Shown here in pieces: positions 1 to 5,988 of a DNA stretch of 5,988 nucleotides. The notes under the pieces are model-generated. The model was not told the origin of the DNA. It saw only the letters and a list, made by a program, of their open reading frames with translations, and did not search any database. Origin of the DNA: a virus (Duplodnaviria > Heunggongvirae > Uroviricota > Caudoviricetes); IMG/VR virus record IMGVR_UViG_2534681774_000011, positions 1-5,988 of that record; one strand, 5' to 3'. Made by a program: the position numbers and the translations under genes. Positions within the stretch are counted from its first letter, which is position 1. Each line of letters begins with the position of its first letter.

Positions 1-1
1 C

Positions 2-154
2 GCATCACGCGTCGCGCAAATCATGCACATCAATATGCTGCATGAGCGTAGCTGCGAACTTTCAAACCTCTATTCATCCGCTGTTTTCAGCTATCTGGCG
101 GATGATCTGCGCGAGCTTCAGCAGCTCATCCAGCAGCAAAACAAACTCCATTAA
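2..154 (+). CDS. 3' end of an upstream gene entering from beyond the window (hypothetical protein, C-terminus ...LADDLRELQQLIQQQNKLH)
   Basis: Reading frame +2 is open from the window edge to TAA at 152-154 and translates to a protein-like sequence (ASRVAQIMHINMLHERSCELSNLYSSAVFSYLADDLRELQQLIQQQNKLH). It is co-oriented with the downstream operon. The competing +3 frame ORF (42-230) is serine-rich low complexity. Frame choice is unresolved without a homology search. Confidence 0.35.
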   Translation, partial: ASRVAQIMHINMLHERSCELSNLYSSAVFSYLADDLRELQQLIQQQNKLH

Positions 155-226
155 TTCCTGTTCCGGGCCTTTCCTGCACCTTGCGGCGGGAGGCCTTCGC
201 ACATCTGTAACAAGAGGATTGCCGCA

Positions 227-592
227 ATGATTCTCGCCAACGACTTTCTTGAATACCTGCTCAACACAGAACGTGATCTTGCCGCTCGCGTGCGTGAACG
301 TTATGACATGTACCTGAAATCCCTGCCTGTACCGCAGCTCGCTGACGGAAAGATTGTTATTGATGGTCGCTACATGATTGACAGCCACGAGGGAAATTAC
401 AGGCTTTACCGCATTGAAGGTGGCACCCCGTCCGTTATTGGCATTTACCAGCGCCCATCCTCTGCAATCGTCGATGTGATTGCCGACAGCATCCGCATCA
501 CACATCGCCATGCCGACACAGAAGACACCGTGCTGGAAATTCAGCGGCTGGCTACAGTCTGCCGCGACACCCTGAATGGCATAACGAAGTAA
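227..592 (+). CDS. hypothetical small protein of the early/replication operon, 121 aa, function unknown
   Basis: ATG at 227 preceded by AGAGGA about 13 nt upstream. Stop TAA 590-592 lies 6 nt before the next ATG (599), giving tight operon spacing with the gpA-like gene. The translation has no recognisable motif. The antisense ORF 74-1063 is judged spurious. Confidence 0.6.
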   Translation: MILANDFLEYLLNTERDLAARVRERYDMYLKSLPVPQLADGKIVIDGRYMIDSHEGNYRLYRIEGGTPSVIGIYQRPSSAIVDVIADSIRITHRHADTEDTVLEIQRLATVCRDTLNGITK

Positions 593-598
593 ATCACT

Positions 599-1060
599 AT
601 GACGGCAGAGTACATCAGGGACTGGCAGCAACCGCGCCACGCAGTGGGGCGTGAAGGAACGGGGATCCCCGCTCCTGAATCCGCGCTTTCCTCCTGGCTG
701 GATGCCTACCGGGCAGAGAACGAGCGCTGCCAGGAAATGGCTGATGCGGCGTTCTCCGCCACGCCGCTGGGCAACCTGATTAATAAAAGCCTGGACGCAC
801 AGGAAAAACAGGACAAAACCATCACACTGGCAGGAGACGCCAGAAAGCAGGCACGCGGCGCGGTGGATGAAGCCATGGCCTCGCTGCGCCTGCTGCCATC
901 CTATCTGCGCGATCCGCTTATTCGCCACCTCTCCTTCCTGCGCAAAAAACAGGAATCGACCGCCAGAAAGGCAAAAAGAGCTGGCAGGCTGAACGCTACG
1001 CGCGCGGAACCCTGCGCAAAATATTCGAACGTCTGGACCGCACCGACGGGCGCTGGCTGA
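599..1060 (+). CDS. probable N-terminal segment of the gpA-like replication initiator, in frame +2 (out of frame with the main ORF); alternatively a separate small gene
   Basis: ATG 599 follows the previous stop by 6 nt. The translation is protein-like up to about residue 125 (...LRLLPSYLRDPLIRHLSFLRKKQESTARKAK) and then turns low-complexity (RAGRLNATRAEPCAKYSNVWTAPTGAG). Exactly there, frame +1 becomes protein-like and continues into the HUH initiator ORF. Frame +1 is open from 871 to 1105 without any ATG/GTG/TTG. Confidence 0.5.
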   Translation: MTAEYIRDWQQPRHAVGREGTGIPAPESALSSWLDAYRAENERCQEMADAAFSATPLGNLINKSLDAQEKQDKTITLAGDARKQARGAVDEAMASLRLLPSYLRDPLIRHLSFLRKKQESTARKAKRAGRLNATRAEPCAKYSNVWTAPTGAG

Positions 1061-1104
1061 CACCGGGTTATCGCTCCCTTGCCGGACGCGAACGCCTGGA
1101 TGAT

Positions 1105-3420
1105 TTGCTTTACCTGCCGCAGCTCAACAAGCACCAGATACAGACGCTGGCCACCATGACGGCGGCGATGTTCAGCAGCACCTTCGAAACACTCTGCGAT
1201 GGCTTTGGTGCCAGAGATGGCGAACTGACCATGGATGTAACGCTGAAGGCGTATCGGATGCTGGCCCGTATCGCATTACGCCTGCACATCATGCCGCCAC
1301 ATTACGACGCACTGACAACAGACAAAGACCGGAGGAACGATCCGGACACGGAACTGTTACCGGGCGCAATCCTTCGCCTGACCTGTGCGGAATGGTGGAA
1401 ACGCAAACTGTGGCTGTTACGTTGCGAGTGGAGAGAAGAACAACTCCGCGCCGCCTGTCTGGTTTCCAGAAAAACATCACCCTATCTGAGCCAGGACGCG
1501 TTAAGCGAGTTTCGCGCACAGCGCGAGAAAACACGCGATTTCCTGAAAAGTTTCATGCTGGAAAATGAAGACGGGTTCACGATTGATCTCGAGACAGTGT
1601 ATTACGCGGGAGTAAGTAACCCGGTTCACCGTAAGGCAGAAATGATGGCCACCATGAAGGGACTGGAACTTCTGGCCGAAGCCCGTGGCGACAGAGCGGT
1701 GTTTCTGACTGTCACCTGCCCGTCAAAATACCACGCAACAACGGAGAACGGTCATCCGAACCCCAAATGGAACGGGGCCACCATGCGCGACTCCAGCGAT
1801 TACCTGGTTAACACGTTTTTTGCGGCGGTCCGCAAGAAACTGAACCGCGACGGCCTGCGCTGGTATGGCATCCGCACGGTGGAGCCTCACCATGACGGAA
1901 CCGTGCACTGGCATATGATGGTCTTTGCCCATCCGGAAGAAATCGACACCATTGTGTCCCACACCCGCGATATTGCCATTCAGGAAGATCGTCACGAGCT
2001 GGGCGATGATATTACTCCGCGCTTTAAGGCGGAGTATGTAGACGGCTCAAAAGGCACGCCAACCAGCTACATCGCCACCTACATCGGAAAGAACCTGGAC
2101 AGCCGCGCCGTGGATGGCATCGACCCGAAAACGGGCAAGCCACGCGTTGACCACGAAACAGGAAAATCAATGGCCGAGAGCGTGGAGCGCGCCATCGGCT
2201 GGGCGCGCCTTCACCGGGTCCGCCAGTTCCAGTTCTTTGGCATCCCCTCCCGTCAGGTGTGGCGTGAACTCCGCCGCCTTGCCAGCCAGATGGCACGCAA
2301 CCCGGAAGGCCCGCAACGGCTGAAGGATGACGCAATGGATGCGGTTCTTGCTGCCGCTGATGCCGGATGTTTTGCCACCTACATAGAGAAACAGGGCGGC
2401 GTACTTGTTCCACGCAAAGACTACCTGATTCGCACCGCCTACGACCTCGCCGATGAGCTGAACGATTACGGCGAACAGAGCGTACAGATTTACGGGATCT
2501 GGTCACCACTCATCGGGGAATCCTCCCGTGTGTGCACGCATCCGGATAACTGGAAGCTGGTAAGACGCAAACCGGAAGCGGAAGACAGCGCCCGCGAAAA
2601 TGGTTTTGACCTTCAGGGCGGCCCTGCCGCCCCTTGGACTCGTGGCAATAACTGTCCCCGTGTACAGGAAACGGACAACAACGGGACAGAACAGTCGGAA
2701 GAACGGCCAGCACCGTGGCCGCAGCTCCCTGACGGCGTTGAAGTGAACGAATGGATGCGCTCACTGAAACGGCACGAACGCCGGGCGCTGATGCGTTCGC
2801 TTCGTGACAAACAGGCAAAAAACAGCAGTGATGAAATGCAGAGCTGGACACAGAGCCGCAAACAGCAGCGGCCTTTGCCTGATAACCACGAATTACTCGC
2901 TAAAGAATGGCGGAAGTCTGCCGAATCTCTCGGCCTGCATATCGGTGAACAGCAGATGCAGCACCTGTTACGGGGCGGCAGTCTGTACGTTGACGGCAGC
3001 ATCATTGCACCGCAGGGATTTGAAATTGTACGCAAACCGGATACCCGCCCGGACAGTCGAATCACGCAGCTCTGGCAGCACCTGAGCCGTAATCACGGCG
3101 TAAGCAGCACGGAGATCCGCCATAACCCGGTCGCCAGCTATCTGGCACAGCTGGGGGCATCAGACCCCGAAGCCGCCGCACGCCTGGCATCCGCACTTCA
3201 GCAGGATCAGAACACCATGAAAACACCCGTTACCGTGCTTTCTGACATGCTGCGCGCCATCCGCGACGCAGAGCACGCACAGAGAATCAGTGAAACCACT
3301 GAACGCGCCAGCCGCAAAGCAGACCTGCTGCAGGGTGGCCTGACCAGTGGAAACAAAAAACAGACAGAAACGGGATCCACAAATCCCGTAAATGAGCAAA
3401 AAACGCGCCGCGATATATGA
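1105..3420 (+). CDS. phage P2 gpA-family rolling-circle replication initiation endonuclease (HUH nickase); major in-frame portion, likely N-terminally incomplete as an ORF
   Basis: 771-codon ORF. Contains the HUH-type metal-binding motif VEPHHDGTVHWHMMVF (nt about 1885-1930) and paired catalytic tyrosines Y-IAT-Y-IGKN (TAC 2068-2070 and 2080-2082), characteristic of P2 A-type initiators. The ORF-track start at 1105 is TTG with no convincing SD. Coding-like sequence continues upstream in the same frame to the stop at 868-870. Confidence 0.85.
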   Translation: MLYLPQLNKHQIQTLATMTAAMFSSTFETLCDGFGARDGELTMDVTLKAYRMLARIALRLHIMPPHYDALTTDKDRRNDPDTELLPGAILRLTCAEWWKRKLWLLRCEWREEQLRAACLVSRKTSPYLSQDALSEFRAQREKTRDFLKSFMLENEDGFTIDLETVYYAGVSNPVHRKAEMMATMKGLELLAEARGDRAVFLTVTCPSKYHATTENGHPNPKWNGATMRDSSDYLVNTFFAAVRKKLNRDGLRWYGIRTVEPHHDGTVHWHMMVFAHPEEIDTIVSHTRDIAIQEDRHELGDDITPRFKAEYVDGSKGTPTSYIATYIGKNLDSRAVDGIDPKTGKPRVDHETGKSMAESVERAIGWARLHRVRQFQFFGIPSRQVWRELRRLASQMARNPEGPQRLKDDAMDAVLAAADAGCFATYIEKQGGVLVPRKDYLIRTAYDLADELNDYGEQSVQIYGIWSPLIGESSRVCTHPDNWKLVRRKPEAEDSARENGFDLQGGPAAPWTRGNNCPRVQETDNNGTEQSEERPAPWPQLPDGVEVNEWMRSLKRHERRALMRSLRDKQAKNSSDEMQSWTQSRKQQRPLPDNHELLAKEWRKSAESLGLHIGEQQMQHLLRGGSLYVDGSIIAPQGFEIVRKPDTRPDSRITQLWQHLSRNHGVSSTEIRHNPVASYLAQLGASDPEAAARLASALQQDQNTMKTPVTVLSDMLRAIRDAEHAQRISETTERASRKADLLQGGLTSGNKKQTETGSTNPVNEQKTRRDI
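3368..3392. repeat. copy 1 of a 25-bp repeat containing a 7-bp-arm palindrome (AAACGGGAT-N6-ATCCCGTAAA); candidate centromere/operator or origin element
   Basis: aaACGGGATccacaaATCCCGTaaa. Arms ACGGGAT and ATCCCGT are perfect reverse complements separated by 6 nt. It lies inside the last 50 nt of the gpA-like ORF. Confidence 0.55.
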
Positions 3421-3496
3421 AGCGCGCACAAAACAGGCAAAAACGGGATTTCAGAATCCCGTAAACGATTAATTAATCAACATAAGGAAAAGCGAC
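3421..3496 (+). promoter_or_regulatory. putative promoter/operator region of the parM-parR operon
   Basis: AT-rich 76-bp intergenic stretch (..cgattaattaatcaacataaggaaaagcgac) with SD AAGGA at 3484-3488 and palindrome copy 2 overlapping the likely promoter. In known ParMRC loci the ParR-bound repeats flank the par promoter. No precise -35/-10 could be assigned with confidence. Confidence 0.35.
3441..3465. repeat. copy 2 of the same 25-bp palindrome-containing repeat, in the intergenic region upstream of parM
   Basis: aaACGGGATttcagaATCCCGTaaa. Arms and flanks are identical to copy 1 and only the 6-nt spacer differs. It is 73 bp downstream of copy 1 and about 30 bp upstream of the parM ribosome-binding site. 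Confidence 0.55.
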
Positions 3497-4456
3497 ATGA
3501 AAATTTGTATCGACGACGGCTCCACCAACATCAAGCTGGCATGGACTGAGAACGGCGAACGCCGCAACGCCATCAGCCCGAACAGCTTCAAGTCGGAATG
3601 GTCTGCGCCGTTCGGTGGCACGCATCCCGCGAACTACATGCTTGATGGCGTGCGCTATGGCTTTGATCCGGTCAGCGATCGCTTTGTCCAGACGACCGAC
3701 ACGCAATACCAGTACAGCGATGTGAATGTAATCGCCATTCACCACGCGCTGGTCAAATCAGGCATCACACCACAGGAGGTGGATGTGGTTGTCACCCTGC
3801 CACTGAGCGAGTATTTCGACACAAACGCACAGCCGGACATGGCCAACATCAACCGCAAAAAAGCGAACGTCATGCGCCCGGTGGAGTACCAGAACGGTGA
3901 GGCATTCACTATCCGTAACGTGCGGGTTATGCCTGAATCCATTCCGGCAGGCTTTAAGGCACTGGCTGACATGAGTCCGTTTGAATCCCTGCTGATTGTG
4001 GATTTGGGCGGAACCACGCTGGATGTGGCAAAGGTTCAGGGACAACTGGCAGGTATCAGCCAGGTGTTTTGCGATCCACACGTAGGTGTTTCACTGATGG
4101 CCGATGCCGTGCTGTCGGTGATGGCCACTAACGGTATGCGCACCAGTCACCACATCGCCAATACCATTATTGAACATCGCCATGATGAAGCCTGGCTGCG
4201 CCAGCACATCCACAATGACGCGCATTACGCCAGCCTGATGGCGGTTATTCGTGAAAAGGAAGAAACACTGAAACAACGCGTGATCCGCGCGCTGGCGGGT
4301 TTTTCGGGTTACGGGCGGGTGATGGTTGTCGGTGGCGGGGCGGAGATTGTGGCACCCGCTATCCGCGAAGCCTGCGGAGTTAATGCGACTTTCATCGCGG
4401 ACGGGGTGCCACAGTTTGCTCTGGTTAATGGGCTGTACGCAATGGACAAGGAGTAA
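3497..4456 (+). CDS. parM: ParM/StbA-family actin-like segregation ATPase (type II partition)
   Basis: 319 aa. The N-terminus MKICIDDGSTNIKLAW...ISPNSFKSEW...YQYSDVNVIAIHHAL...VDVVVTLPL closely parallels plasmid R1 ParM as recalled (MLVFIDDGSTNIKLQW...ISPNSFKREW...WQYSDVNVVAVHHAL...). Length matches ParM (about 320 aa). Actin-fold phosphate motifs DDGSTN and VDLGGTT are present. SD AAGGA lies 8 nt upstream of ATG 3497. Confidence 0.9.
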   Translation: MKICIDDGSTNIKLAWTENGERRNAISPNSFKSEWSAPFGGTHPANYMLDGVRYGFDPVSDRFVQTTDTQYQYSDVNVIAIHHALVKSGITPQEVDVVVTLPLSEYFDTNAQPDMANINRKKANVMRPVEYQNGEAFTIRNVRVMPESIPAGFKALADMSPFESLLIVDLGGTTLDVAKVQGQLAGISQVFCDPHVGVSLMADAVLSVMATNGMRTSHHIANTIIEHRHDEAWLRQHIHNDAHYASLMAVIREKEETLKQRVIRALAGFSGYGRVMVVGGGAEIVAPAIREACGVNATFIADGVPQFALVNGLYAMDKE

Positions 4457-4460
4457 GCCA

Positions 4461-4772
4461 ATGACGACACCAACCAGACGGATAAGTTTCTATCTGAAGC
4501 CCGCCGCCGTCAAGAACGAAGGCGAAGCATGCGCCTGGCTGGACAGCCTTACACCAGAAGCCCGCAAAAGTGGTCAACGCGTGGCTTTTCTGGCCGGGCT
4601 GGCACTACTGAAAATGAATCCGGCAGAGGCTTACCGACTGGCTGCATGGGCTGATGATGAGGCGTTATCAGTGACACAAACCAGGACAGAACGCCCCGCG
4701 TCACAGCCAGTATCAGCCGCACAGATAACCAGTCAGATGGCCGGAAATATCCGGGCGTTATTTCCCGAATAA
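4461..4772 (+). CDS. parR: ParR/StbB-like centromere-binding adaptor of the type II partition system
   Basis: 104 aa from ATG 4461, with SD AAGGAG at 4448-4453, 4 nt after the parM stop. The N-terminal region RRISFYLKPAAV...LDSLTPEARKSGQRVAFLAGLALL resembles R1 ParR as recalled (RRTIAFKLNPDV...LDSIPQGERSRLNRAALTAGLALY). The ORF-track start at 4326 is an upstream in-frame extension overlapping parM and is not used. Confidence 0.75.
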   Translation: MTTPTRRISFYLKPAAVKNEGEACAWLDSLTPEARKSGQRVAFLAGLALLKMNPAEAYRLAAWADDEALSVTQTRTERPASQPVSAAQITSQMAGNIRALFPE

Positions 4773-4777
4773 CACAA

Positions 4778-4801
4778 CATCAGGGCGCATCCGCCCTGAT
4801 G
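4778..4801 (+). terminator. perfect 10-bp-stem/4-nt-loop GC-rich hairpin immediately after parR; possible terminator or module-boundary structure (no U-tract)
   Basis: CATCAGGGCG-catc-CGCCCTGATG begins 6 nt after the parR stop. It is followed by ACTTTAACCC rather than a T-run, so it is not a canonical intrinsic terminator. Composition shifts to lower GC downstream. Confidence 0.3.
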
Positions 4802-4835
4802 ACTTTAACCCGGGAGCATAAACAAGGGGGACACA

Positions 4836-5168
4836 ATGCAACACATTGACAGAGAAAAAGCGCAGCGACTGATTGAGCGGATGGAAGCGCTGGCGAAAGA
4901 AGAAAATGTCAACATCCAAAAAATAGCTGAATGTGGCCAGATAGTTCTTCGTCGTGAAAAAGACCTCAAACAACTGATGTCTGGCGAAACCAGCAAAACA
5001 TGGACTTCAGGTGAGGAGACGATTTATTGCAGCTTCTGCAATAAATCCCAGTACGAAGTCACAAAGGTGATTGCTGGACCGTCTGTTTACATCTGCAATG
5101 AGTGCGTGGATTTGTGCAATGAAATTATCAGGAGAGAAGTGACAGACAAAAAGGGAAAAAACGCATGA
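4836..5168 (+). CDS. small protein with a C-terminal ClpX-type C4 zinc-binding domain (zf-C4_ClpX-like), standalone and lacking an AAA+ module
   Basis: 110 aa. SD GGGGGA lies 5-6 nt before ATG 4836. The C-terminus ...[38 protein letters not shown] nearly matches the ClpX N-domain as recalled ([39 protein letters not shown]), with the four Zn-ligand cysteines CSFC...CNEC. The N-terminal 70 aa are predicted helical and charged. Confidence 0.8.
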
Positions 5169-5500
5169 ACAGAAAACAAAAACAAGAGTTGAAATACTTC
5201 TTACGTAAAGAAATTGCCAGGCTTGAAGATGCAGAATCACAATCATCAGAAATTCCGTTCGGAATGGATATCAACGACGCCCGTATACTCCAGGCATACC
5301 GCATAGCTCAGGCTGCACTACAGGCAAAACCGTCAGATGGACTGGTTAGAGCAGTACGTTTCTATGAACTGGTAAAGCGTGAGAATCCGCCAGTCGAAAC
5401 CGGAGCATGGAAAGACGCTGTTGACTGGGTGCTCAAAGAGGCTTGCCATGTTGTAAATATTGGTATCAAGGGAGGGGGATATGGCAACCAACAACCGTAA
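5165..5500 (+). CDS. hypothetical protein, 111 aa, translationally coupled to the ClpX-ZBD-like gene
   Basis: ATG 5165 overlaps the upstream TGA (5166-5168) in an ATGA arrangement. The translation is protein-like and no motif was recognised. Confidence 0.65.
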
Positions 5501-5675
5501 AGCAAAGATTCTGTTAGTTCGCAGAAACGATCCAGGCGTATGGCAGTGGGTGAGACTCAGCAACCGACGAATTGGGTTGATGAAATATTACGGGATGATG
5601 GATTGCGGTTTTTGCAAAAAGCCCAGCGCGGCGCAAAACCGCTGGAAAAACCACTTTCGCATTAAAGGAGAGTGA
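5481..5675 (+). CDS. hypothetical small basic protein, 64 aa
   Basis: ATG 5481 is preceded by a strong SD AAGGGAGGGGG (5468-5478) and overlaps the 3' end of the preceding ORF by 20 nt. The protein is lysine/arginine-rich ([23 protein letters not shown]...). The ORF-track start at 5460 is rejected in favour of the SD-backed ATG. Confidence 0.5.
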   Translation: MATNNRKAKILLVRRNDPGVWQWVRLSNRRIGLMKYYGMMDCGFCKKPSAAQNRWKNHFRIKGE

Positions 5676-5676
5676 G

Positions 5677-5895
5677 GTGCCTACACTATTCAGGAAAAAC
5701 TATCCGCGAAAGAGTAGAGCAATAGAATTTCTGTTTCTCATTCTGTTTATCGTGTTGATGATACCGATATCCCCGCTAATTTTTATCTGGGCAATCGGGA
5801 AAATAATTGAGCCAGTTATTGAATTGTATAACGACGTGGTATGGGCGTCGTTCAACACATTGCACAATAAAATTAATCCGTATAAGGAAAACTGA
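5677..5895 (+). CDS. hypothetical small membrane protein, 72 aa, with one long hydrophobic helix
   Basis: GTG 5677 lies 1 nt after the upstream TGA, with SD AAAGGAG (5664-5670) 6 nt upstream. The hydrophobic segment AIEFLFLILFIVLMIPISPLIFIWAIG is flanked by basic residues. The region is markedly AT-rich. The antisense ORF 5700-5969 is considered spurious. Confidence 0.5.
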   Translation: MPTLFRKNYPRKSRAIEFLFLILFIVLMIPISPLIFIWAIGKIIEPVIELYNDVVWASFNTLHNKINPYKEN

Positions 5896-5896
5896 T

Positions 5897-5988
5897 ATGG
5901 CAACGTTGACAAAAAAAGAACAGGCATGGTTGAACGAATTACAGGACGTTCTTGATCGCTGTCCATCACCGAAAAAAATTGGTTTTTA
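5897..5988 (+). CDS. 5' end of a further gene running off the window (MATLTKKEQAWLNELQDVLDRCPSPKKIGF...), function unknown
   Basis: ATG 5897 lies 1 nt after the preceding TGA (5893-5895) with SD AAGGA (5884-5888). The frame is open to the window edge. Only 30 codons are visible. Confidence 0.4.
   Translation, partial: MATLTKKEQAWLNELQDVLDRCPSPKKIGF

Follow-up and report, generated by a model that had tools for sequence, protein, structure and literature searches.

A DUF4014 family gene in the gpA-gpQ region of a P2-like Escherichia coli prophage is an exchangeable early-region cassette for a predicted small membrane protein

In this study we analysed a 5,988-nucleotide stretch of Caudoviricetes DNA (positions 1 to 5,988 of IMG/VR record IMGVR_UViG_2534681774_000011; hereafter the window) and in particular a 72-codon open reading frame (ORF) close to its end. 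This ORF lies on the plus strand at 5677-5895, starts with GTG and encodes MPTLFRKNYPRKSRAIEFLFLILFIVLMIPISPLIFIWAIGKIIEPVIELYNDVVWASFNTLHNKINPYKEN, a small protein with a single hydrophobic helix. By all testable criteria it is a member of the DUF4014 family (phrog_1832), an ordinary, catalogued gene that RefSeq has already annotated in near-identical prophages. Our best overall explanation, to which we give a probability of roughly 45%, is that the gene is a mobile DUF4014 cassette whose product would be an early-made membrane protein that binds a host envelope protein. The identity and architecture of the gene are close to certain, and the mechanism that we propose for its product is a tentative one.

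The assignment to DUF4014 is founded on a Pfam score above the gathering cut-off (PF13198, E = 4.1e-26, 91.6 bits against a cut-off of 23.2, residues 2-72 on model positions 2-72 of 72), a full-length match to the phrog_1832 profile (E = 6e-45, residues 1-72 of 72) and a conserved architecture. The DUF4014 members 933W L0067, epsilon15 gp46, ES18 gp39, epsilon34 gp27, g341c gp23, HK225 gp56 and D6 orf103 have a 72-residue region like that of the window protein and the same motifs, namely YPRxSR, a transmembrane (TM) helix with PISP and a C-terminal LHNKxNPY(K/R)E. Identity with the window protein is 92% for 933W L0067, compared with 51-54% for the members from Salmonella phages. While the window cassette is found in a P2-like prophage, the other members are found in lambdoid, epsilon15-like or P1-like genomes, and otherwise we see no substantive difference. 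The features of the region are listed below; L001 is the locus of a near-identical prophage in E. coli FDAARGOS_1059.

5481-5675, plus strand: upstream 64-aa ORF, phrog_1380 (E = 3.8e-38), no assigned function; RefSeq coding sequence WP_000224733.1 in L001
5664-5679, plus strand: upstream cassette junction AAAGGAGAGTGAGGTG, with the Shine-Dalgarno (SD) sequence AAGGAG at 5665-5670, the upstream stop TGA at 5673-5675, a 1-nt spacer and the GTG at 5677
5677-5895, plus strand: DUF4014 family gene, 72 aa plus stop; PF13198, phrog_1832, RefSeq WP_001142597.1 in L001
5884-5899, plus strand: downstream junction, with an SD-like AAGGA at 5884-5888 in the last DUF4014 codons, TGA at 5893-5895, a 1-nt spacer and ATG at 5897
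5897-5988, plus strand: first 30 codons of an 87-aa soluble alpha/beta protein, phrog_1714, no assigned function; cut at the window end
5700-5969, minus strand: antisense 89-aa ORF, a shadow of the plus-strand genes and not a gene

An earlier note on this DNA had described the terminal segment as the most AT-rich part of the window, encoding a small protein with one hydrophobic helix, and both descriptions are correct. The GC content at 5677-5988 is 0.381, the lowest of 5,677 sliding windows of 312 bp, and that of the whole window is 0.538. The note had also read recent horizontal acquisition from this composition. The exchange itself is real, as the mosaic homology discussed below demonstrates, but the argument from composition is a weak one. 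Within the 72-aa gene the GC content is 0.37 at the first codon position, 0.29 at the second and 0.48 at the third, and as the AT bias is for the most part found at the first two positions, the low GC is largely a property of a protein rich in F, I, L, K, N and Y. The DUF4014 gene has a GC content of 0.38-0.40 in 933W, epsilon15, g341c, ES18, HK225 and D6, irrespective of the GC content of the surrounding genome. Since the gene is equally AT-rich in all its carrier phages, composition alone is weak evidence of recent transfer, and we do not use it as stand-alone evidence.

For the conservation analysis we used the DUF4014 gene from 89 loci, which represent 43 distinct DNA sequences, the window included. 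The plus-strand frame is open for exactly 72 codons in 42 of these 43, the exception being phage D6, in which the stop is lost. It is open even in homologues that are 51-54% identical and in which synonymous sites are saturated, and the median ratio of nonsynonymous to synonymous substitution rates (dN/dS) against the window allele is 0.22. The 72-aa gene is thus under purifying selection. The start codon is either GTG or ATG, with an identical position in all homologues, and in the window it is found 6 nt past the AAGGAG. Taken together with the family match and the location in a phage hotspot, this selection bears out the view that the plus-strand ORF is a real gene, for a small and predicted single-TM protein, in a phage accessory region. 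The family can be found in about 140 protein clusters at 90% identity, nearly all of them of 72 residues, from E. coli, Shigella, E. albertii and Salmonella. A full hidden Markov model (HMM) scan of 1.84 billion representatives yielded 23 clusters at 50% identity, all of which belong to the same narrow family, many of them as its fragments or fusions, with no remote DUF4014 homologue outside it. In a collection of species-representative genomes, DUF4014 matches are found in E. coli and Shigella only.

The protein can be divided into three parts. Residues 1-17 (5677-5727) form a basic N-terminal flank with five K/R and one acidic residue (E) and the conserved YPRxSR motif. Residues 18-41 (5728-5799) form a hydrophobic, predicted TM segment of 24 residues with the conserved prolines P30 and P33, and the Kyte-Doolittle hydropathy peaks at 2.97 over residues 19-37. 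Residues 42-72 (5800-5892) form an amphipathic C-terminal tail with three K against four D/E, which ends in the near-invariant motif LHNK(I/L)NPY(K/R)E. The conserved positions in our two alignments are YPRxSR, P30 and P33, G41, E45, Y51, F59 and this C-terminal motif. For the last of these the conservation is one of protein sequence, as the differences between the E. coli and Salmonella clades are synonymous there. An AlphaFold2 (AF2) model, built on a shallow alignment of 20 close sequences, has a predicted local distance difference test score (pLDDT) of 81.6 and shows helices at residues 14-28 and 32-66, with a break at P30-P33. The charges of the flanks (+5/-1 at the N-terminus against +3/-4 in the C-terminal tail), together with the single hydrophobic segment, are consistent with a bitopic protein with its N-terminus inside and its C-terminus outside (N-in/C-out).

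The setting of the gene is that of a P2-like prophage. Over its entire length the window matches the prophage in E. coli FDAARGOS_1059 at 98.7% identity. Of 5,426 complete E. coli genomes, only six have the exact 1.2-kb arrangement of 4800-5988, at 99.0-99.9% identity. In L001, RefSeq annotates on one strand the replication endonuclease (gpA), ParM, a partition/stability protein, a ClpX-type zinc-finger protein, two hypothetical proteins, the DUF4014 family protein WP_001142597.1 (the 72-aa ORF) and two further small hypothetical proteins. Beyond these small accessory genes follow the portal, terminase and capsid genes of a P2-family phage. By its gene order the window belongs to a P2-like E. 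coli prophage, with the 72-aa gene inside the variable hotspot between gpA and gpQ. The gpA-gpQ interval of P2-like phages is known as a hotspot of diversity that often carries anti-phage genes (PMC9122126).

The horizontal exchange of the DUF4014 segment is shown directly by mosaic homology with Shiga toxin (Stx) phages. Many Stx phages, 933W among them, match positions 5493-5908 of the window at 93.5% identity. In 933W the same genes are found with one extra cassette inserted at one of the junctions described below. The related phage P88, on the other hand, shares only positions 4800-5474 with the window and has neither DUF4014 nor the 87-aa gene. The DUF4014 gene is found in 1,019 of 5,426 complete E. 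coli genomes, with up to six copies per genome, and also on non-mobilisable plasmids of about 90 kb, which we take to be phage-plasmids. In every context that we have seen, the gene is co-directional within early lytic operons. It lies in the early-left 'ea' region in 933W, g341c and ES18, in the early-right region in epsilon15 and HK225, and downstream of gpA here. DUF4014 is a cassette of about 220 bp among tightly abutting small accessory genes of the early region, and such runs of accessory genes are found in the early 'ea/nin' regions of lambdoid (Stx and P22-like), epsilon15-like and P1/D6-like phages.

The boundaries of this cassette are conserved. On the upstream side, the preceding gene ends in K-G-E-stop encoded by AAAGGAGAGTGA, which provides the SD sequence for DUF4014. 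In the window this is the end of the 64-aa ORF, of which a homologue ending in TKGE-stop is found in 933W. The junction AAAGGAGAGTGAn(A/G)TG is found ahead of DUF4014 behind several unrelated upstream genes ending in KGE-stop, and in total the upstream neighbours belong to at least eight families with conserved junctions. On the downstream side, TGA-n-ATG followed by ATGGCAAC or ATGACCAC (M-A/T-T-L/I-T-K/R) is kept before at least six unrelated genes, whose products start with M-A/T-T-L/I-T-K/R-E. Because the junctions are conserved and the neighbours variable, we regard DUF4014 as a self-contained cassette that is shuffled at short boundary homologies, and the swapping of cassettes at these junctions explains why its neighbours differ between phages. 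Unrelated genes are likewise exchanged at short conserved gene boundaries in the mosaic cassettes of lambdoid phages. Such modular exchange is attributed to Baker et al. 1991 where that work is cited in PMC13586616. The exchange of DUF4014 crosses phage types, between a lambdoid Stx phage and a P2-like prophage, which is notable and yet within known behaviour. Juhala/Hendrix and Clark reportedly described lambdoid modular exchange at conserved boundary sequences as well.

Some further observations concern the junctions. Junctions of the AAAGGAGAGTGAnRTG type (KGE-stop) and of the MATLTK / MTTITKE type recur in lambdoid, epsilon15-like, P1-like and P2-like phages, for example at 5664-5679 and 5884-5914 in the window, at 2672 and 2889 in 933W (L002) and at 3663 in a further locus (L095); these short recurring sequences look like recombination linkers for cassette shuffling. 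In phage D6 (L005 2001-2456, orf103) the DUF4014 stop is replaced by GAT, and the gene is fused in frame to the next cassette. The fusion product has 151 residues (...NPYKETD-MATLTKEE...), and its downstream cassette differs from that of the window. The third small gene after DUF4014 (L001 8372-8632) and the 207-aa EaA-like L0065 of 933W (L002 3413-4036) have their first 35 or so residues in common and then diverge; the common stretch, MTTFTDKE[LM]IKEIKERIGSLDVRDNIERRAYEIAL, is another case of N-terminal module sharing among 'ea' proteins.

What might such a protein do? We searched for a promoter or terminator of its own, but promoter-like sites are no commoner than in shuffled sequences, terminators do not exceed chance either, and none flanks the DUF4014 gene. 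The gene is co-oriented, and would be translationally coupled, with the genes downstream of the replication gene A, as it is with early-left or early-right operon genes in other phages, and for these reasons its protein would probably be made early after induction or infection. It would then insert as a bitopic inner-membrane protein with a cytoplasmic basic N-terminus, a proline-kinked TM helix of 24 residues and a periplasmic amphipathic tail of 31 residues. With the kinked helix and the conserved tail it may bind a specific inner-membrane or periplasmic (envelope) protein of the host, a possibility to which the position-specific selection points. This mode might be likened to that of small membrane-protein regulators or inhibitors, and non-specific membrane damage is not indicated. 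The DUF4014 protein would act alone and not as a pair with the 87-aa protein encoded downstream.

There are several points that weigh against this explanation. The early expression is deduced from gene order, and the N-in/C-out topology from hydropathy and the positive-inside rule only. A specific homo-oligomeric pore could account equally well for the position-specific conservation. Any comparison has limited power, as the family is so narrow. Finally, our search of the literature for DUF4014 or 933W L0067 found no paper and no experiment on any family member. Among the specific versions of host-envelope binding, superinfection exclusion and the inhibition of an envelope-polysaccharide enzyme seem the most plausible. 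A non-specific membrane toxin is less likely, as both the position-specific conservation and the tolerated multi-copy carriage count against it.

In the case of superinfection exclusion, the membrane protein would block DNA entry or receptor function for incoming phages, in the manner of T4 Imm or HK97 gp15. The predicted product is a small bitopic inner-membrane protein, DUF4014 is common among temperate phages, and in P2 itself the exclusion genes old and tin occupy the hotspot in which the gene is found here (PMC9122126). The protein resembles T4 Imm, HK97 gp15 and P22 SieA, which are also small inner-membrane proteins from non-essential phage regions. The likeness does not extend to homology, and DUF4014 has no promoter of its own. 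T4 imm is an early lytic gene. When we scanned eight proteins of the region with the PADLOC-DB v2 defence and exclusion models, neither the TM protein nor the 87-aa protein matched, nor did the proteins encoded next to them, and the sole match, that of the 111-aa ORF, was at chance level (E = 0.026). Without its own promoter, and with a place in early lytic operons in all contexts, it is doubtful whether the gene would be expressed from a repressed prophage. Moreover, as strains hold up to six copies in different prophages, the accumulation of carrier prophages is evidently not blocked. On balance we consider superinfection exclusion unlikely, though worth keeping in view.

Another possibility is that the protein inhibits an O-antigen O-acetyltransferase of the AT3 family or another envelope-polysaccharide enzyme, as an old label of epsilon15p46 says. 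The window protein is a homologue of epsilon15 gp46, with 54% identity over 72 aa (tblastn E = 8e-12). The label '(Sugar/O-polysaccharide) acetyltransferase inhibitor' comes from an early RefSeq name of gp46 and is also found in the record notes of g341c and HK225 and in two cluster names; we could trace no experimental support for it. Two papers relay that Kropinski 2007 proposed two short epsilon15 proteins that inhibit O-acetylation, 'not investigated to date' (PMC3715488; PMC9558356). Small phage proteins that alter the O-antigen non-enzymatically do exist: the epsilon15 gp21 alpha-polymerase inhibitor, D3 Iap and Gnarl1-3 are, like the window protein, very small accessory proteins, several of them hydrophobic, and they bind host envelope-biosynthesis proteins and are not catalytic (PMC12373910). 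We find no sequence relationship between DUF4014 and these proteins, so the likeness to small O-antigen-enzyme inhibitors, as that to exclusion proteins, would be a functional analogy only.

Other observations speak against such an inhibitor. The annotation that linked gp46 to acetylation has been withdrawn, and in the current epsilon15 GenBank record gp46 is listed as hypothetical and the transacetylase effect is ascribed to gp28, whose gene adjoins int. The gene for gp46 lies in the early-right lytic operon and not beside int, where conversion genes usually lie. DUF4014 is also common in phages such as the Stx phages of O157 and D6 on K-12 C600, and to our knowledge O-antigen acetylation of that kind is not known in hosts such as these. 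Neither DUF4014 nor these accessions are mentioned in the supplementary material of the Gnarl and P2-hotspot papers, and the epsilon34 genome paper is silent on its DUF4014 homologue. A second circulating label, 'released from the phage upon host infection', is a PHROG label that is also found in several RefSeq phage records; we traced no source for it, and the phrase is in no paper that we found. It is improbable, in our view, that the window protein is an inhibitor of this kind, and just as improbable that DUF4014 proteins in general serve as small membrane inhibitors, binding and silencing an envelope-polysaccharide enzyme of the host, be it an AT3-type O-acetyltransferase or another enzyme of O-antigen or enterobacterial common antigen (ECA) synthesis.

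The earlier note had considered a toxin or abortive-infection (Abi) effector, and a stand-alone membrane-damaging toxin (type I-toxin-like, holin-like or an Abi effector) that depolarises the membrane when made has about the same low standing. The protein is short and consists in large part of one very hydrophobic helix between charged flanks, and its length and single helix are indeed features of type I toxins such as Hok, TisB, Ldr and Ibs. DUF4014 differs from these in several ways. No antisense, antitoxin or other RNA of the Rfam families was matched in 4700-5988 at E values up to 1, though a novel small RNA is conceivable. There is no independent promoter or 5' leader, and the gene starts 1 nt past the upstream stop, coupled within an operon. 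Strongly conserved polar motifs and prolines are found outside the generic hydrophobic core. No lysis genes are found among its neighbours, which are early accessory genes of the gpA-gpQ interval, and this places the gene outside any lysis cassette. The PADLOC models give no match here either.

It seems very unlikely that the hydrophobic segment is a cleavable signal peptide, cut after the invariant G41 (A-I-G / K) to release a periplasmic peptide of 31 residues. A signal peptide would be in keeping with the basic n-region, the hydrophobic core and the window protein's small residues at -3 and -1, but position -3 varies in homologues and includes F, I and L. The helix in the AF2 model is continuous through residue 41, which also counts against cleavage, and a hydrophobic core of about 23 residues exceeds the typical length of a Sec signal peptide.

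The earlier note was right that a second ORF abuts the gene: MATLTKKEQAWLNELQ... starts with the ATG at 5897-5899, one base after the stop at 5893-5895, and is open at the window end. Its complete product is the 87-aa protein (phrog_1714). The note had further suggested that this gene could be a partner or regulator. A two-gene module of DUF4014 and the 87-aa protein, either toxin-antitoxin (TA) or effector-regulator, would agree with the 1-nt spacing, the apparent translational coupling and the presence of this pair in 43 of the 87 sampled loci with a detectable downstream ORF. However, the same slot is filled with similar spacing by at least five other unrelated proteins: 20 loci have an Ead-like protein starting MTTITxE, 14 a 121-aa Cys/His-rich protein and seven a protein of the 933W L0066 type, to which we found no similarity of the 87-aa protein, and the remainder are one pair and one singleton. 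The distance from the DUF4014 stop to the downstream ORF is 1 nt in the IMG/VR and E. coli loci, 3 nt in epsilon15-type phages and 10 nt in one locus. The 87-aa family also ranges more widely, to Klebsiella, Enterobacter, Edwardsiella, Tatumella, Pectobacterium and Kluyvera, and in the Klebsiella and Edwardsiella prophages examined the gene upstream of the homologue encodes a different, non-membrane protein. It thus occurs without DUF4014 in three of our loci (L091, L092 and L095), those of Klebsiella, Edwardsiella and the P2-like sister phage PhiR44_2, and in PhiR44_2 an 87-aa gene that is 98% identical lies directly behind an unrelated 163-aa gene ending IKGE-stop. The conserved co-occurrence across genomes that characterises TA or Abi pairs is therefore not seen, the two genes are not a fixed unit when sought in other genomic contexts, and hardly any room is left for a dedicated partnership.

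The weakest alternative, which the earlier note had named as a scenario that would overturn its reading, is that the minus-strand ORF at 5700-5969 is the real gene and the TM ORF an antisense artefact; the ORF exists and matches phrog_20982 (E = 1.2e-27), but its ends are unconserved (a stop at 5700 here, longer frames in most homologues and a 113-aa ORF in 933W), it has two to three stops inside the DUF4014 gene in the epsilon15/g341c/ES18/HK225 clade, it crosses the junction into a downstream gene that differs between phages, its GTG has no SD ahead of it, its replacements are less conservative (mean BLOSUM62 of -0.59 against +0.19 in the plus frame), and it would oppose a co-directional operon in which RefSeq annotates the plus-strand gene only, so that we reject it with next to no reservation. 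As the third codon positions of the antisense frame coincide with those of the plus frame, this frame is expected to be open by chance. The phrog_20982 match most probably stems from antisense ORFs that were annotated in some deposited phage genomes, and the phrog_20982 family itself may be built from spurious antisense gene calls.

Several other observations were made in the upstream part of the window. ParM and the small partition/stability gene are found at 3497-4772, directly after gpA, in an integrated P2-like prophage; a partition system is found in this hotspot in about a quarter of P2-like phages (Rousset et al., PMC9122126). One base is missing at 955-956 of the window relative to FDAARGOS_1059, whose gpA is a single ORF of 940 aa, and gene A is split in the window into a 153-aa ORF (599-1060) and a 771-aa ORF (1105-3420) in different frames. 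Either the prophage is frameshifted (defective) or the missing base is due to a sequencing error. The 110-aa protein at 4836-5168 (phrog_6797) is essentially a ClpX C4-type zinc finger (PF06689, E = 8e-18) without the ATPase domain, and could be a ClpX decoy or adaptor. The 111-aa ORF (5165-5500) and the 64-aa ORF (5481-5675) overlap by 20 nt (5481-5500). Matches to phrog_26213 and phrog_660 fall in the C-terminal half of the 111-aa protein. In other loci, for example L019, a related C-terminus that ends NKGE-stop is found directly upstream of DUF4014.

As it stands, the locus carries little weight, being a catalogued DUF protein next to a gene with which it does not form a unit; the idea of a partner gene is refuted, and that of a toxin has no support. 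It has a modest value as a candidate for the discovery of function, as a tiny, strongly constrained and predicted membrane protein that is carried by 1,019 of 5,426 complete E. coli genomes, Shiga-toxin phages included. The conserved junctions illustrate how cassettes of the early region are shuffled among lambdoid, epsilon15-like, P1-like and P2-like phages. If the protein targets an envelope enzyme or a route of DNA entry, it would be a common new member of the small phage proteins that reprogram the cell surface. And if the inhibitor reading were true, a peptide of 72 residues in about one fifth of E. coli genomes would remodel the surface early and with no need for a phage enzyme, which would amount to a Gnarl-like, enzyme-free surface conversion or exclusion.

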